Under the pieces are notes generated by a model. The model had not been told where the DNA came from. It made no database searches and saw only the letters and a list, made by a program, of their open reading frames with translations. Positions 5,800 through 63,798 of a stretch of DNA of 64,000 nucleotides are shown one piece after another (the first letter of the stretch is position 1; each line of letters begins with the position of its first letter). A program made the position numbers and the translations under genes. The DNA is taken from NCBI RefSeq assembly GCF_056746865.1, contig NZ_CM163382.1. One strand, given 5' to 3'.

Positions 5800-5820
5800 T
5801 ACCCAATTTTTCTGAATCTA

Positions 5821-5847
5821 AAAAGCGCCTGCGGGCGCTTTTTTTGT
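5821..5847 (+). terminator. Rho-independent terminator of serS
   Basis: GC hairpin gcgcc-tgcg-ggcgc followed by a T7 run. Confidence 0.7.
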
Positions 5848-5853
5848 CTCCCT

Positions 5854-5867
5854 TTGATACCGAACAA
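5854..5867 (+). promoter_or_regulatory. Candidate FNR site in the dmsA promoter
   Basis: TTGATaccgAACAA approximates the FNR consensus TTGAT-N4-ATCAA; lies about 170 bp upstream of the dmsA start codon; dmsABC is an anaerobically induced operon. Confidence 0.5.
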
Positions 5868-6037
5868 TAATTACTCCTCACTTACACGTAATACTACTTT
5901 CGAGTGAAAATCTACCTATCTCTTTGATTTTCAAATTATTCGATGTATACAAGCCTATATAGCGACCTGCTATAGAAATAATTACACAATACGGTTTGTT
6001 ACTGGAATCAATCGTGAGCAAGCTTGAGTGAGCCATT

Positions 6038-32998: not shown

Positions 32999-34231
32999 AT
33001 GTCGCTGCCGCACCTCTCTCTTGCTGATGCGCGTAATCTTCACCTCGCCGCGCAAGGCCTGTTAAACAAACCCCGCCGTCGAGCGTCGTTGGAGGATATT
33101 CCGGCAACGATCTCCCGAATGTCCTTGCTGCAAATCGATACCATTAATATTGTTGCCCGTAGTCCATATCTGGTGCTTTTCAGTCGTCTGGGAAATTATC
33201 CTGCCCAGTGGCTGGATGAGTCTCTGGCGCGTGGCGAATTAATGGAATACTGGGCGCATGAAGCCTGCTTTATGCCGCGTAGCGACTTTCGTCTTATTCG
33301 CCACCGCATGCTGGCACCTGAAAAAATGGGCTGGAAATACAAAGACGCCTGGATGCAGGAACATGAGGCGGAAATTGCACAGTTAATTCAGCATATTCAT
33401 GATAAGGGGCCGGTACGTTCAGCCGATTTTGAGCATCCTCGTAAAGGTGCAAGCGGCTGGTGGGAATGGAAGCCGCATAAACGGCATCTGGAAGGTTTAT
33501 TTACTGCCGGAAAGGTGATGGTGATTGAACGGCGCAACTTCCAGCGCGTTTATGATTTAACCCACCGAGTCATGCCTGACTGGGATGATGAGCGCGATCT
33601 CGTTTCGCAAACAGAAGCAGAAATCATCATGCTGGATAACAGTGCGCGTAGCCTGGGAATATTCCGCGAACAGTGGCTGGCAGATTACTATCGGCTGAAA
33701 CGTCCGGCACTGGCGGCGTGGCGCGAAGCGAGGGCTGAACAGCAGCAAATCATTGCTGTGCATGTTGAAAAATTGGGCAATCTTTGGCTGCATGCTGATT
33801 TGCTGCCGCTACTCGAGCGTGCGCTGGCCGGAAAGCTCACTGCAACGCACAGCGCGGTACTTTCGCCTTTTGATCCTGTTGTCTGGGATCGCAAACGCGC
33901 AGAGCAGCTTTTTGATTTTAGCTACCGGCTGGAGTGCTATACCCCAGCGCCGAAACGCCAGTATGGCTATTTTGTTCTGCCGTTATTACATCGTGGGCAA
34001 TTAGTTGGGCGAATGGATGCCAAAATGCATCGCCAGACAGGCATCCTTGAAGTTATCTCTCTGTGGTTACAGGAAGGCATTAAACCAACGACAACGCTGC
34101 AAAAAGGGTTACGTCAGGCGATTACTGATTTCGCTAACTGGCAGCAGGCAACGCGGGTGACATTAGGACGCTGCCCGCAAGGCCTCTTTACTGATTGCCG
34201 CACCGGCTGGGAAATAGACCCCGTCGCATAA
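32999..34231 (+). CDS. ycaQ: Winged-helix DNA glycosylase-like protein YcaQ
   Basis: 410 aa; matches YcaQ from memory. Confidence 0.8.
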   Translation: MSLPHLSLADARNLHLAAQGLLNKPRRRASLEDIPATISRMSLLQIDTINIVARSPYLVLFSRLGNYPAQWLDESLARGELMEYWAHEACFMPRSDFRLIRHRMLAPEKMGWKYKDAWMQEHEAEIAQLIQHIHDKGPVRSADFEHPRKGASGWWEWKPHKRHLEGLFTAGKVMVIERRNFQRVYDLTHRVMPDWDDERDLVSQTEAEIIMLDNSARSLGIFREQWLADYYRLKRPALAAWREARAEQQQIIAVHVEKLGNLWLHADLLPLLERALAGKLTATHSAVLSPFDPVVWDRKRAEQLFDFSYRLECYTPAPKRQYGYFVLPLLHRGQLVGRMDAKMHRQTGILEVISLWLQEGIKPTTTLQKGLRQAITDFANWQQATRVTLGRCPQGLFTDCRTGWEIDPVA

Positions 34232-34282
34232 ATGATTATGATAAGATTTATGCATTCATAACCCGATCCATCTGGAGGAACT

Positions 34283-35208
<926 letters not shown>

Positions 35209-35361
35209 TTTCACTTCACGACACTCCAGCCAATTTTGGGAGGAGTGTCGTACCGTTACGATTTTCCTCAATTTTTCTTTTCAACAATTGATCTCATTCA
35301 GGTGACATCTTTTATATTGGCGCTCATTATGAAAGCAGTAGCTTTTATGAGGGTAATCTGA

Positions 35362-36255
35362 ATGGAACAGCTGCGTGCCGAATTAAGCCATTTACTGGGC
35401 GAAAAACTCAGTCGTATTGAGTGCGTCAATGAAAAAGCGGATACGGCGTTGTGGGCTTTGTATGACAGCCAGGGAAACCCAATGCCGTTAATGGCAAGAA
35501 GCTTTAGTACGCCCGGAAAAGCCCGACAACTGGCATGGAAAACCACCATGCTGGCAAGAAGTGGGACTGTCCGTATGCCGATTATTTATGGTGTGATGAC
35601 GCATGAAGAACACCCTGGCCCCGATGTCCTGCTACTGGAGCGGATGCGTGGTGTTTCGGTGGAGGCACCAGCCCGAACACCAGAACGCTGGGAACAGCTT
35701 AAAGATCAAATCGTTGAAGCCTTACTGGCCTGGCACCGTCAGGACAGTCGCGGTTGCGTCGGCGCGGTCGACAATACTCAGGAAAATTTCTGGCCCTCAT
35801 GGTACCGGCAACATGTTGAAGTGCTATGGACCACGCTCAATCAGTTCAATAACACCGGTCTAACGATGCAGGATAAGCGGATCCTGTTTCGTACTCGCGA
35901 ATGTCTCCCGGCATTATTTGAAGGCTTTAACGACAATTGTGTGCTGATTCACGGTAACTTCTGTTTACGCAGCATGCTGAAAGATTCGCGCAGCGATCAG
36001 TTACTGGCGATGGTCGGGCCGGGACTAATGCTTTGGGCACCGCGAGAATATGAACTGTTCCGACTAATGGATAATTCTCTGGCGGAAGATTTGCTCTGGA
36101 GTTACCTGCAACGCGCGCCAGTGGCGGAGTCGTTCATCTGGCGGCGTTGGTTGTATGTGTTATGGGATGAAGTTGCGCAACTGGTTAATACCGGACGATT
36201 TAGTCGGCGCAACTTCGATCTGGCATCAAAATCACTCTTGCCGTGGCTCGCCTGA
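35362..36255 (+). CDS. ycbJ: Putative phosphotransferase/kinase-like protein YcbJ
   Basis: 297 aa; 3' end overlaps the 3' end of convergent elyC by 24 nt. Confidence 0.8.
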   Translation: MEQLRAELSHLLGEKLSRIECVNEKADTALWALYDSQGNPMPLMARSFSTPGKARQLAWKTTMLARSGTVRMPIIYGVMTHEEHPGPDVLLLERMRGVSVEAPARTPERWEQLKDQIVEALLAWHRQDSRGCVGAVDNTQENFWPSWYRQHVEVLWTTLNQFNNTGLTMQDKRILFRTRECLPALFEGFNDNCVLIHGNFCLRSMLKDSRSDQLLAMVGPGLMLWAPREYELFRLMDNSLAEDLLWSYLQRAPVAESFIWRRWLYVLWDEVAQLVNTGRFSRRNFDLASKSLLPWLA

Positions 36256-37011
36256 CGAACCTTTTAGCCACTGCCAGATGCGGCCAAGCGTTTCATAGCC
36301 AACACGATCGCTATGCATCAACCAAACCGGAGAAGGGATTGCCCGTTCCCACGGATTAAGCGGCGAGTCGATGGCCAACTGATTCGCCGGGGCTGGCAGC
36401 GGATTTAGCCCTTCCTGCTGAAAAAAGATCATCGCCCGCGGCAGATGTGATGCGGAGGTCACCAGCAGGAAAGGGGCGTCACCAATCGCCTGTTTCACTG
36501 CCGCAGCTTCTTCTTCGGTATCTTTTGGCAAATCCAGGGTGATAATTTGCTCGCGCGGCACGCCCAGCGATTGCGCAACTCGGGCACCTACTTCCGCTGT
36601 ACTCACCGTATTGGTTTTTGCTACGCCTCCCGTGAAGATCAGTTTTGATCCCGGATTTTCGCGCCATAAGCGAATACCTTCATTCAGGCGGGGCAGACTG
36701 TTATTGATTAAATTCGAGCTTGGTGCCCACTGCGGGTTCCAGGTATAACCACCTCCGAGCACCACGATATAGTCCACTTTTTGCGAATTATTCCATGTCG
36801 GATAGGTGCTTTCGATGGGACGCAGCAGGCGGTCGGCTACCGGTTGCAAACTCAATAACAAGAGCGCCAGCCACCCAATGCTAATAAAAATCTTCCCGGT
36901 TTTTTGAAAACGGCTAAACCACAGCAGCGCCAGGCCAGCGCCAATAATCAACAACATCAGCGGAAGTGGCAGCAACATATTGCCAATCACTTTTTTCAGT
37001 GTAAAAAGCAT
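36232..37011 (-). CDS. elyC: Envelope biogenesis factor ElyC (YcbC, DUF218)
   Basis: 259 aa; N-terminal transmembrane segments. Confidence 0.85.
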   Translation of the reverse strand: MLFTLKKVIGNMLLPLPLMLLIIGAGLALLWFSRFQKTGKIFISIGWLALLLLSLQPVADRLLRPIESTYPTWNNSQKVDYIVVLGGGYTWNPQWAPSSNLINNSLPRLNEGIRLWRENPGSKLIFTGGVAKTNTVSTAEVGARVAQSLGVPREQIITLDLPKDTEEEAAAVKQAIGDAPFLLVTSASHLPRAMIFFQQEGLNPLPAPANQLAIDSPLNPWERAIPSPVWLMHSDRVGYETLGRIWQWLKGSSGEPRQE

Positions 37012-37146
37012 CCTTTCTGGTTCCTTTTTTAACCATATAGCAAGGGATCGCCAGCGATATTACACCAGACGGGTTCATTCTCGCCGTGGCTGTGACAAAA
37101 TAGCGTCTTTATCAGAAAACGTCTTAGCCAACCGGTGGAGAAAGCA

Positions 37147-37932
37147 ATGCAGGATCGCAATTTTGATGATATTGCGGAAAAGTTTTCCCGTAACATTTAC
37201 GGCACCACCAAAGGGCAGCTTCGACAGGCTATTCTGTGGCAGGATCTCGATCGCGTGCTGGCGGAAATGGGCCCGCAAAAACTGCGTGTGCTGGATGCTG
37301 GCGGTGGAGAAGGGCAGACCGCAATCAAAATGGCTGAGCGCGGGCATCAGGTCATTTTATGCGATCTTTCTGCGCAGATGATCGACCGCGCAAAACAGGC
37401 GGCAGAAGCAAAAGGTGTGAGCGACAACATGCAATTTATACATTGCGCCGCTCAGGATGTTGCTTCGCATTTGGAAACGCCCGTTGATCTGATATTGTTC
37501 CATGCGGTGCTCGAGTGGGTGGCCGATCCCCGCAGCGTATTACAGACCCTGTGGTCAGTGTTGCGTCCAGGCGGTGTGTTGTCGTTAATGTTCTACAATG
37601 CGCACGGCTTGCTGATGCATAACATGGTCGCCGGGAATTTTGATTACGTGCAGGCGGGAATGCCGAAAAAGAAAAAACGGACGCTTTCGCCAGATTATCC
37701 ACGCGACCCGGCGCAGGTTTATCTGTGGCTGGAAGAAGCTGGTTGGCAAATTATGGGTAAGACAGGCGTTCGCGTGTTTCATGATTATCTGCGCGAGAAG
37801 CACCAGCAGCGCGACTGCTATGAAGCATTACTTGAATTAGAAACGCGTTATTGCCGTCAGGAACCGTATATTACCCTGGGGCGTTATATTCATGTCACCG
37901 CGCGCAAACCGCAGAGCAAGGATAAAGTATGA
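37147..37932 (+). CDS. cmoM: SAM-dependent methyltransferase CmoM (SmtA)
   Basis: 261 aa from [19 protein letters not shown]...; SAM motif VLDAGGGEG; ATGA overlap with mukF. Confidence 0.85.
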
Positions 37933-39251
37933 GTGAATTTTCCCAGACAGTCCCCGAACTGGTTGCCTGGGCCAGAAAAAATGACTTCTCCATCTCGCTG
38001 CCGGTAGACCGACTCTCTTTTCTGCTGGCGGTTGCCACGCTGAACGGCGAGCGTCTGGATGGTGAGATGAGTGAAGGCGAGCTGGTGGATGCATTCCGCC
38101 ATGTGAGTGATGCGTTTGAGCAAACCAGCGAAACCATCGGCGTGCGCGCCAACAACGCGATCAACGACATGGTGCGTCAACGTCTGCTGAACCGCTTTAC
38201 CAGCGAGCAGGCGGAAGGGAACGCAATTTACCGTCTGACGCCGCTCGGCATTGGCATCACTGACTATTACATTCGTCAGCGCGAGTTTTCTACGCTGCGC
38301 CTTTCTATGCAATTGTCGATTGTGGCGGGTGAGCTCAAACGCGCAGCAGATGCCGCCGAAGAGGGCGGTGATGAATTTCACTGGCACCGTAATGTTTATG
38401 CGCCACTGAAATATTCGGTAGCAGAAATTTTCGACAGTATCGACCTGACGCAACGTCTGATGGATGAACAGCAGCAGCAGGTGAAGGATGATATCGCCCA
38501 GTTGTTGAACAAAGACTGGCGGGCGGCGATTTCCAGCTGTGAATTGTTGCTTTCAGAAACTTCCGGCACGCTGCGTGAATTGCAGGATACGCTGGAAGCG
38601 GCAGGCGATAAATTGCAGGCCAACCTGTTACGCATTCAGGATGCGACGATGACCCATGACGATCTGCATTTTGTCGATCGTCTGGTATTCGATCTGCAGA
38701 GCAAACTTGACCGTATTATCAGCTGGGGCCAGCAATCCATCGATTTGTGGATTGGCTACGACCGCCACGTACACAAATTTATTCGTACTGCGATCGATAT
38801 GGATAAAAACCGCGTCTTTGCTCAGCGGTTACGTCAGTCGGTACAAACCTATTTTGATGAGCCGTGGGCGCTAACTTATGCCAATGCCGATCGTCTGCTG
38901 GATATGCGTGACGAAGAGATGGCTCTGCGCGATGAAGAAGTGACAGGAGAACTTCCTGAGGATCTGGAGTACGAAGAGTTTAACGAGATCCGCGAACAGC
39001 TGGCGGCGATCATTGAAGAACAACTTGCCGTGTACAAAACCAGACAAGTGCCGCTGGATCTTGGTCTGGTGGTACGCGAATATCTGTCACAGTATCCGCG
39101 TGCACGTCACTTTGACGTTGCGCGCATTGTTATTGATCAGGCGGTACGTCTTGGCGTAGCGCAAGCAGATTTCACCGGACTGCCAGCGAAATGGCAGCCG
39201 ATTAATGATTACGGAGCCAAGGTACAGGCGCATGTCATCGACAAATATTGA
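37929..39251 (+). CDS. mukF: Chromosome partition protein MukF (kleisin)
   Basis: 440 aa [25 protein letters not shown]... Confidence 0.96.
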
Positions 39252-57236: not shown

Positions 57237-58312
<1,076 letters not shown>

Positions 58313-62702: not shown

Positions 62703-62787
62703 TTTATTGCCACAGGTCAATTCCCTTTTGGTCCGAACTCGCACATAATACGCCCCCGGTTTGCACACCGGGAATCCAGGAGAGTTC

Positions 62788-63798
62788 ATGTACTACCCCT
62801 TCGTTCGTAAAGCCCTTTTCCAGCTCGATCCAGAGCGCGCTCATGAGTTTACTTTTCAGCAATTACGCCGTATTACAGGAACGCCGTTTGAAGCACTGGT
62901 GCGGCAGAAAGTGCCTGCGAAACCTGTTAACTGCATGGGCCTGACGTTTAAAAATCCGCTTGGTCTGGCAGCCGGTCTTGATAAAGACGGGGAGTGCATT
63001 GACGCGTTAGGCGCGATGGGATTTGGATCGATCGAGATCGGTACCGTCACGCCACGTCCACAGCCAGGTAATGACAAGCCGCGTCTCTTTCGTCTGGTAG
63101 ATGCCGAAGGTTTGATCAACCGTATGGGCTTTAATAATCTTGGCGTTGATAACCTCGTAGAGAACGTAAAAAAAGCCCATTATGATGGCGTCCTGGGTAT
63201 TAACATCGGCAAAAATAAAGATACGCCGGTGGAGCAGGGTAAAGATGACTATCTGATTTGTATGGAAAAAATCTATGCTTATGCGGGATATATCGCCATC
63301 AATATTTCATCGCCGAATACACCGGGATTACGTACTCTGCAATATGGCGAAGCGCTGGATGATCTCTTAACCGCGATTAAAAATAAGCAAAATGATTTGC
63401 AAGCGATGCACCATAAATATGTGCCGATCGCAGTGAAGATCGCGCCGGATCTTTCTGAAGAAGAATTGATCCAGGTTGCCGATAGTTTAGTTCGCCATAA
63501 TATTGATGGCGTTATTGCAACCAATACCACGCTCGATCGTTCTCTGGTTCAGGGAATGAAAAATTGTGATCAAACCGGTGGCTTAAGTGGTCGTCCGCTT
63601 CAGTTAAAAAGCACCGAAATTATTCGCCGTTTATCACAGGAATTAAATGGTCGCTTACCGATCATCGGTGTTGGCGGCATCGACTCGGTTATCGCTGCGC
63701 GTGAAAAGATTGCTGCGGGGGCCTCACTGGTGCAAATTTATTCTGGTTTTATTTTTAAAGGTCCGCCGCTGATTAAAGAAATCGTTACCCATATCTAA
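62788..63798 (+). CDS. pyrD: Dihydroorotate dehydrogenase (quinone)
   Basis: 336 aa from [29 protein letters not shown]...; the ORF-track start at 62761 is an upstream extension. Confidence 0.96.

Follow-up and report, generated by a model that had tools for sequence, protein, structure and literature searches.

Coding sequences of convergent genes can share their last nucleotides, and Escherichia coli has about 75 convergent overlapping CDS pairs (Huvet & Stumpf 2014, PMC4161906). Such tail-to-tail overlaps are short and conserved, arise through a stop-codon shift and leave the functional cores of the two proteins outside the shared segment. The transcripts of convergent operons overlap as well: 276 of 370 convergent E. 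coli operons do so at their 3' ends, over 286 nt on average (Conway et al. 2014, PMC4161252). Convergent excludons, of which ExcludonFinder lists 165 in E. coli MG1655 (Sanmartin et al., NAR 2025, PMC12288877), are adjacent genes on opposite strands with overlapping RNA-seq-defined boundaries. Under the excludon concept, such genes are expected to be expressed in a mutually exclusive way and to be processed by RNase III. In most of the listed pairs the genes are separated by intergenic DNA, 95 nt on average, in which terminators are embedded. Synteny is reported to be higher for excludon pairs than for other neighbouring genes, and p19 dsRNA capture is not feasible for validating the convergent ones (PMC12288877). 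Bidirectional terminators, which are symmetric stem-loops between genes, have been described together with RNA polymerase collisions that can end convergent transcription (Wang et al. 2022, bioRxiv 10.1101/2022.10.23.513370), and untranslated or antisense RNA is subject to Rho termination (Adams et al. 2021, eLife, PMC7815308).

The ycbJ-elyC pair analysed here lies in a window of 64,000 nucleotides (NCBI RefSeq assembly GCF_056746865.1, contig NZ_CM163382.1). Its overlap is already known: it is annotated in RefSeq, listed as a convergent excludon and stated in a 2025 study. To this we add its phylogenetic extent, its derived origin, the asymmetry between a driving and a passenger reading frame, the fixed position of the elyC stop and the REP-mediated uncoupling of the two genes in Citrobacter. 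The reading that we prefer, with a probability of roughly 0.75, is that of an ordinary compacted tail-to-tail overlap that arose by a shift of the elyC stop; each transcript would terminate within the partner gene, chiefly through Rho, and the unavoidable 3' complementarity would serve no dedicated regulatory role.

Geometry and annotation of the shared segment

The coordinates of all features are given in Table 1. The sequence-only reading had described a 24-nt convergent overlap with the ycbJ stop inside the last eight codons of elyC, and the ORF list, the sequence and the RefSeq annotation agree with it; the codon that faces the ycbJ stop is elyC Ser253. On the plus strand ycbJ reads TCA CTC TTG CCG TGG CTC GCC TGA (S L L P W L A stop) across the overlap, and on the minus strand elyC reads TCA GGC GAG CCA CGG CAA GAG TGA (S G E P R Q E stop). 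Since the codons of the two genes are exactly antiparallel, each TGA stop is at the same time a TCA serine codon of the partner. Pfam recognizes APH in YcbJ and DUF218 in ElyC, the latter over residues 80-231. Both proteins match their NCBIfam equivalog models from end to end (NF007890, 1-297 of 297, for YcbJ; NF007794, 1-259 of 259, for ElyC), so that an error or a frameshift artefact is excluded for both stops. The two genes adjoin the LPS genes msbA-lpxK-kdsB.

Table 1. Positions of the features discussed in the text (window numbering)
Feature	Position	Strand	Description	Source
ycbJ CDS	35362..36255	+	297 aa; YcbJ family putative phosphotransferase, APH fold	ORF list, RefSeq, Pfam APH, NCBIfam NF007890
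elyC (ycbC) CDS	36232..37011	-	259 aa; envelope biogenesis factor, DUF218	ORF list, RefSeq, Pfam, NCBIfam NF007794
Dual-coding overlap ycbJ/elyC	36232..36255	both	24 nt, codons in exact antiparallel register	sequence
TCA, ycbJ Ser291 codon	36232..36234		complement is the elyC TGA stop (36234..36232, -)	sequence
TGA, ycbJ stop	36253..36255		complement is the elyC Ser253 TCA codon	sequence
End of conserved ElyC core	36256..36279	-	…I-W-Q-W-L-K-G plus one variable codon	alignment of 79 loci
Rho termination region, peak	35730	+	K-12 972120; resolution about ±800 nt, spanning the ycbJ 3' half and the overlap	Adams et al. 2021
10-bp perfect inverted repeat	36169..36216	-	GAAGTTGCGC … GCGCAACTTC; inside ycbJ, begins 16 nt downstream of the elyC stop; fold z=-3.0	
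Imperfect palindrome across the overlap	36218..36279		ATCTGGCA/TGCCAGAT (36218-25 / 36272-79) plus GTGGCT/AGCCAC (36243-48 / 36266-71)	

RefSeq shows the same geometry for strain 118UI and for K-12 MG1655, in the latter with the genes at 971752..972645 (b0919) and 972622..973401 (b0920); K-12 position 971752 corresponds to window position 35362. Of 5426 complete E. coli genomes, 5425 carry the 81-nt segment that surrounds the overlap, annotated under both genes, and 5422 carry the 1.8-kb ycbJ-elyC region. Tested as a tail-to-tail overlapping CDS pair, ycbJ and elyC have genuine full-length ORFs, shared 3' nucleotides and conservation in relatives. An artefact of annotation or sequencing, with one of the true stops lying upstream, was named by the sequence-only reading as what could remove the overlap. 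No evidence for such an artefact was found. Both stop codons are unambiguous, and the geometry recurs in K-12, in nearly all complete E. coli genomes and in 67 other species. Given this presence across genomes and the equivalog matches, we reject a frameshift or other artefact, the probability of which is negligible.

The length of the overlap calls for no special explanation. In the antiparallel register, antisense stops arise solely from the sense codons TTA, CTA and TCA, and with the codon content of ycbJ and elyC the probability that an antisense frame runs for 7 codons or more without a stop is 0.68-0.80. Thus, the length is not beyond chance; the persistence of the arrangement across species is not random.

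Species distribution and codon-level constraint

We scanned one genome per species. Among the closest 80 Enterobacteriaceae loci listed, 78 include both gene ends; the sample is drawn from Enterobacteriaceae other than Klebsiella and, among the other families of Enterobacterales, from Plesiomonas only. The protein homologue search gave close relatives only, and distant ones were reached through 50%-identity cluster representatives. A 24-nt overlap is present in 67 of the 78 loci, one of which is a Leclercia assembly with elyC frameshifted upstream and the same 3' geometry as the other 66. The overlap measures 21 nt in five further loci and 36 nt in two, the latter from species in which the ycbJ stop is lost and ycbJ is 12 nt longer. 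Of 75 species, 72 have a stop codon at the position of the ycbJ stop. Conservation in other Enterobacteriaceae, by which the sequence-only reading had proposed to check the overlap, is thus seen in 74 of the 78 loci, with lengths of 21-36 nt.

The overlap is missing from four Citrobacter species (Citrobacter freundii group), which carry 35-117 nt of inserted sequence directly after the ycbJ stop and have an ElyC of 254 aa ending in …KG[SAR]EH*. The longest insert matches a repeat with at least 40 unannotated copies per E. coli genome, which supports its assignment as a REP-like, REP/BIME-type element. An Rfam search of the inserts returned no family, and an exact REP consensus search within the window gave no match at up to 3 mismatches. 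Judged by the cluster representatives, YcbJ is a narrow family. In a locus of the Dryocola/Cedecea/Buttiauxella type (73% identity) the overlap measures 21 nt. In Plesiomonas shigelloides (42%) a 30-nt spacer separates the two genes, which are still convergent, and ElyC ends in …LKGKH*; a 33%-identical relative has convergent ycbJ and elyC with a 107-nt spacer, and in a 44%-identical relative elyC is absent from the locus. The spacers in Plesiomonas and the distant relative, taken with the Citrobacter inserts, therefore indicate that the convergent adjacency is old and that the overlap is derived in Enterobacteriaceae. The overlap appears to have been lost again at least once, in Citrobacter, where neither gene was lost.

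These distributions bear on the possibility that ycbJ and elyC form a functional convergent excludon, in which their transcription is antagonistic through RNA polymerase collision and/or RNase III cleavage, so that a putative kinase and an envelope factor would be expressed reciprocally. The arrangement is kept in nearly all species, as would be expected of a functional pair, and higher synteny is a property of excludon pairs as a class (PMC12288877). However, the REP-like insert splits the genes in four Citrobacter species with both of them kept, and the outgroups with spacers of 30-107 nt also keep both genes convergent. The same two observations weaken the coupling of expression through transcriptional interference or RNase III that the sequence-only reading had raised. 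We regard a functional excludon as an unlikely explanation. Under the preferred reading, that of an ordinary compacted overlap, the spacer between convergent ycbJ and elyC would have been lost in the ancestor of Enterobacteriaceae. The elyC frame would then have been extended past …WQWLKG into the complement of the last ycbJ codons, and the extension would have halted at the first in-frame stop, the complement of the ycbJ serine codon TCA. The outcome would be a short hydrophilic ElyC tail, xSGEPxQE, which is probably for the most part a passenger of the YcbJ sequence.

Codon-level comparison of 75 species and an alignment of ElyC from 79 loci show which of the two frames drives the shared segment. 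The YcbJ tail, K-S-L-L-P-W-L-A, is almost invariant across the 75 species, with its Leu and Pro codons varying synonymously, and is under purifying selection. Residues of the ElyC tail track these synonymous changes: E/Q/K, then Q/E/K/D/H/N, G/R, P and E/K/Q/D. The Pro among them is forced, because the YcbJ Trp codon TGG is invariant and its complement is CCA. Conservation of ElyC stops at …WQWLKG, just outside the overlap. Together with the way in which the residues follow ycbJ synonymous sites, this suggests that the ElyC tail is mostly a passenger.

The ycbJ frame is nevertheless less free in the overlap than elsewhere. The mean entropy of its fourfold sites is 0.75 bits in the overlap versus 1.45 bits at 95 sites elsewhere (permutation P=0.0006). 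This test takes related species as its sample, but shared ancestry is controlled for in that the columns compared come from the same sequences. The most constrained site is the third base of Ser291: 72 of 75 species have A there, and among 99 conserved fourfold ycbJ columns none has an entropy as low as its 0.18 bits. In the three species without TCA at Ser291, a neighbouring TTA or CTA provides the elyC stop and the overlap becomes 21 nt. This invariance and the nearby substitutes therefore point to purifying selection on the position of the elyC stop. Two further sites are restricted. The ycbJ Pro294 codon is limited to CCC or CCG, which give Gly or Arg in ElyC, and ycbJ codon 296 has C at its third position in 74 of 75 species, which gives Gly or Asp. 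Position 254 of ElyC is Gly in 66 of 75 species. One or two positions of the ElyC tail, occupied by Gly, may also be under purifying selection.

The same constraints could be read as the mark of a functional ElyC C-terminal tail (S-G-x-P-G-x-x), for example a periplasmic interaction or stability motif, with the transcript overlap as its side effect. The lowered fourfold variation, the restricted codons 294 and 296 and the strongly fixed elyC stop all fit such a motif. On the other hand, substitutions at the other tail positions are non-conservative (E, Q, K, D, H, N), the Pro of the motif is the one imposed by the YcbJ Trp codon, the whole tail lies outside the Pfam DUF218 match, and it is swapped for 'EH' in the four Citrobacter species and for 'KH' in Plesiomonas. 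A functional tail is accordingly improbable. Retention of the overlap in 74 of 78 loci and the lowered synonymous variation could alternatively mean that the arrangement as such, or the ElyC tail, is selected.

Transcription and termination at the junction

None of the searches for a dedicated terminator or RNA element at the junction was positive. An intrinsic terminator scan of 34200..38200 found 5 sites, with 5.7 expected from shuffled sequences, and none of them flanks the junction. No family was returned by an Rfam search of 35000..37500, and the plus-strand fold around the overlap is no better than that of shuffles (z=+0.3). The inverted repeat at 36169..36216 is followed by no U-tract on either strand. 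It was rejected as a conserved element: all 10 pairs are formed only in the window and in one other locus (L003), mostly 6-7 of the 10 are formed elsewhere, and the hairpin depends on an E. coli-specific Arg codon. The intact repeat is confined to E. coli-type sequences.

The imperfect palindrome spanning the overlap is a different case, since its 14 pairs are found in 80% of cells over 75 species. Most of these pairs are invariant and only 5 cells are compensatory, and RNAalifold on the species alignment gives 0 consensus pairs. The palindrome follows from Trp-Leu codons that are conserved in both proteins, and we rejected it as a structured RNA. A bidirectional intrinsic terminator, which would be a G+C-rich stem-loop with an A-tract before it and a U-tract after it and so work on both strands, was also rejected on account of the lack of A-/U-tracts at the palindrome, the unremarkable fold and the absence of a predicted terminator at the junction, as was a conserved structured RNA element in general, which has neither covariation support nor an Rfam family.

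Since neither intergenic DNA nor an intrinsic terminator separates the two genes, each transcript is expected to end inside the other gene. The sequence-only reading had concluded that there is no room for terminators. There is indeed no intergenic DNA between the two genes, but termination is possible inside the opposite gene, and a Rho-dependent termination region has been published for the ycbJ strand (Adams et al. 2021, PMC7815308, supplementary file 2). In that study's DirectRNA-seq data, reads in the 800 nt upstream and downstream of its peak number 135 and 18 in untreated cells and 192 and 140 with bicyclomycin, corresponding to a Rho score of 5.47 (p=5e-12). The downstream interval takes in the 3' half of ycbJ and reaches ~275 nt into the region antisense to elyC. 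It therefore spans the overlap, and Rho limits plus-strand RNA there; in exponential LB this RNA is scarce across the overlap, at the 18 reads per 800 nt of untreated cells. The same study gives no curated Term-seq 3' end at K-12 972400-972999 and no Rho region for the elyC strand, and the SMRT-Cappable-seq supplements name neither ycbJ nor elyC.

Base composition is in line with Rho loading on both strands. The GC skew of the plus strand is -0.15 downstream of 36255, and -0.15 to -0.16 over 36200..36350; upstream of 36232 it is +0.13 to +0.26 (36000..36250), so that the minus-strand RNA there is C-rich. Both 3' extensions are thus C-rich and G-poor, a weak feature that is typical of any antisense-of-coding RNA, and this excess of C over G is compatible with Rho loading. 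Under the preferred reading, termination on either strand would most likely be Rho-dependent and act on untranslated, C-rich antisense RNA after ribosomes exit at the stop codon, and polymerase collisions may contribute to it. Ending in the partner gene would make the ycbJ and elyC mRNAs complementary at their 3' ends, like those of most convergent E. coli operons. The antisense 3' ends suggested by the sequence-only reading hold for full-length mRNAs, which are complementary over at least 24 nt.

Published transcript data also bear on an excludon. The ycbJ-elyC pair belongs to the E. coli 'excludome', being called in half or more of the 58 E. coli RNA-seq samples analysed (PMC12288877), no intrinsic terminator insulates one gene from the other, and collisions offer a mechanism for antagonism (bioRxiv 10.1101/2022.10.23.513370). 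However, overlap of coding sequences together with expression meets the ExcludonFinder criterion almost automatically, and the listing therefore does not speak independently for regulation; the dsRNA assay is one that convergent pairs do not allow. Plus-strand RNA at the overlap is sparse in exponential LB and held down by Rho. The collision model, moreover, needs a defined stem-loop terminator, and none is conserved at the overlap. Antisense overlap at 3' ends is the norm for convergent E. coli operons, and therefore the overlap of the coding sequences adds little to it. The papers searched report neither mutually exclusive expression nor RNase III processing for ycbJ-elyC.

In the most far-reaching form of this idea, the overlap would be a selected coupling device: neither gene having a terminator of its own, ycbJ and elyC would limit each other by polymerase collision and/or RNase III cleavage of the duplex formed by their 3' ends. 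They would form a reciprocal envelope-homeostasis switch beside msbA-lpxK-kdsB, with the fixed elyC stop reflecting selection on the geometry of the switch. We consider such a device improbable. Regulatory coupling is not needed to explain the data, and a compacted overlap without a dedicated regulatory role would suffice.

Consequences and comparison with known systems

The shared segment matters for genetics at this locus. A clean deletion of ycbJ or of elyC alters the partner, because the last 24 bases are common to both. Keio deletions reportedly retain the last six codons and the stop (21 nt) of the deleted gene. Presumably, then, the Keio ΔycbJ allele would lack exactly the elyC stop codon, and the ΔelyC allele would in turn lack exactly that of ycbJ. 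According to the 2025 phenotyping study, ycbJ overlaps the oppositely oriented elyC, so that deletion of ycbJ inactivates elyC. Given such damage to elyC, phenotypes assigned to the uncharacterised kinase YcbJ need alleles that spare the overlap, and the Citrobacter REP insertion is a natural control in which ycbJ is uncoupled from elyC. More generally, the locus is a compact case of a stop-codon shift that makes a dual-coding segment in which one frame drives and the other rides. If reciprocal regulation were true, ycbJ-elyC would be a single validated example out of some 165 candidates and would establish no new principle.

Compared with the systems described at the outset, ycbJ-elyC shares with convergent excludons (PMC12288877) the adjacency, the opposite strands and the overlapping RNA-seq-defined boundaries. 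As regards the mutually exclusive expression and RNase III processing that the concept implies, it is a candidate, and it differs from most listed pairs in that its coding sequences overlap and no terminator is predicted, in place of an intergenic region with embedded terminators. It is unlike the bidirectional terminators (bioRxiv 10.1101/2022.10.23.513370), since its sole symmetric repeat is a coding by-product with no A-/U-tract and no covariation. With Rho termination of untranslated or antisense RNA (PMC7815308) the pair has in common the bicyclomycin sensitivity of the ycbJ strand and the C-rich, G-poor composition of both 3' extensions, whereas its Rho peak falls inside ycbJ at coarse resolution rather than at a discrete mapped 3' end. 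Complementary 3' ends are what it shares with the overlapping convergent operons (PMC4161252). The pair falls among the short tail-to-tail CDS overlaps (PMC4161906): the ycbJ-elyC overlap is likewise short, conserved and attributable to a stop-codon shift, with the functional cores of both proteins outside it, and it shows no difference in kind from them.

Transcription into ycbJ

Immediately downstream of kdsB, a stem-loop (Table) bears on the question of readthrough from kdsB into ycbJ. Its fold is strong (MFE -23.7 kcal/mol, z=-4.9, for a folded 96-nt stretch, window 35205-35300) and a U-rich stretch lies 3' of it. A simple terminator scan did not call this structure, which is probably the kdsB terminator or a 3' stabiliser. 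Further downstream, a plus-strand region of Rho-dependent termination peaks within the ycbJ ORF at window ~35730, corresponding to K-12 position 972120, with a Rho score of 5.47 (Adams et al. 2021, PMC7815308). The location of this peak suggests that, in exponential LB culture, much of the plus-strand transcription entering ycbJ ends before or around the 3' end of the gene.

The elyC end in other lineages

In four species of the Citrobacter freundii group (L007, L019, L026 and L015 in the Table), a multi-copy REP/BIME-like repeat, or what remains of one, has abolished the CDS overlap between ycbJ and elyC and changed the ElyC tail to 'EH'; it fills exactly the space from the ycbJ stop to a new elyC stop. 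The 117-nt version of this repeat has at least 40 unannotated matches per E. coli genome. In E. coli, a second in-frame TCA codon, that of ycbJ Ser289 (window 36226-36228), lies two codons past the elyC stop and would serve elyC as a back-up stop; only 5 of the 75 species have a stop at this position in the elyC frame.

At one homologous locus (L085:3001-4787), a YcbJ relative with 44% identity has cmoM and mukFEB as its immediate downstream neighbours, and elyC is missing from the space between. At least one lineage has therefore lost elyC from this conserved neighbourhood or moved it elsewhere. In the assembly of Leclercia adecarboxylata NCTC13032 (L073:3371-4066), elyC is broken into two frames, with ORFs of 124 and 95 aa, which reflects either a pseudogene created by a frameshift or an error in long-read assembly; the geometry of the 3' overlap is unaffected.

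Other features and overlaps of the neighbourhood

Table. Features of the window and of homologous ycbJ loci (L-numbers)
Feature	Position	Strand	Remark
10-bp stem-loop (ACGACACTCC … GGAGTGTCGT)	window 35218-35251	+	10 nt 3' of kdsB stop
REP/BIME-like insert or remnant	L007:1364-1480		
REP/BIME-like insert or remnant	L019:3395-3487		
REP/BIME-like insert or remnant	L026:3395-3452		
REP/BIME-like insert or remnant	L015:3395-3429		
sRNA STnc130	window 5813-5947	-	Rfam, above gathering score
naRNA4, nucleoid-associated REP-derived RNA	window 58191-58269	+	Rfam, above gathering score
PyrD leader	window 62720-62793	+	Rfam, above gathering score

Two 4-nt ATGA-type overlaps, a common translational-coupling geometry, are found in the neighbourhood, namely, ycaR/kdsB (window 34462-34465) and cmoM/mukF (window 37929-37932). 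Both are co-directional, whereas the 24-nt ycbJ/elyC overlap is convergent.
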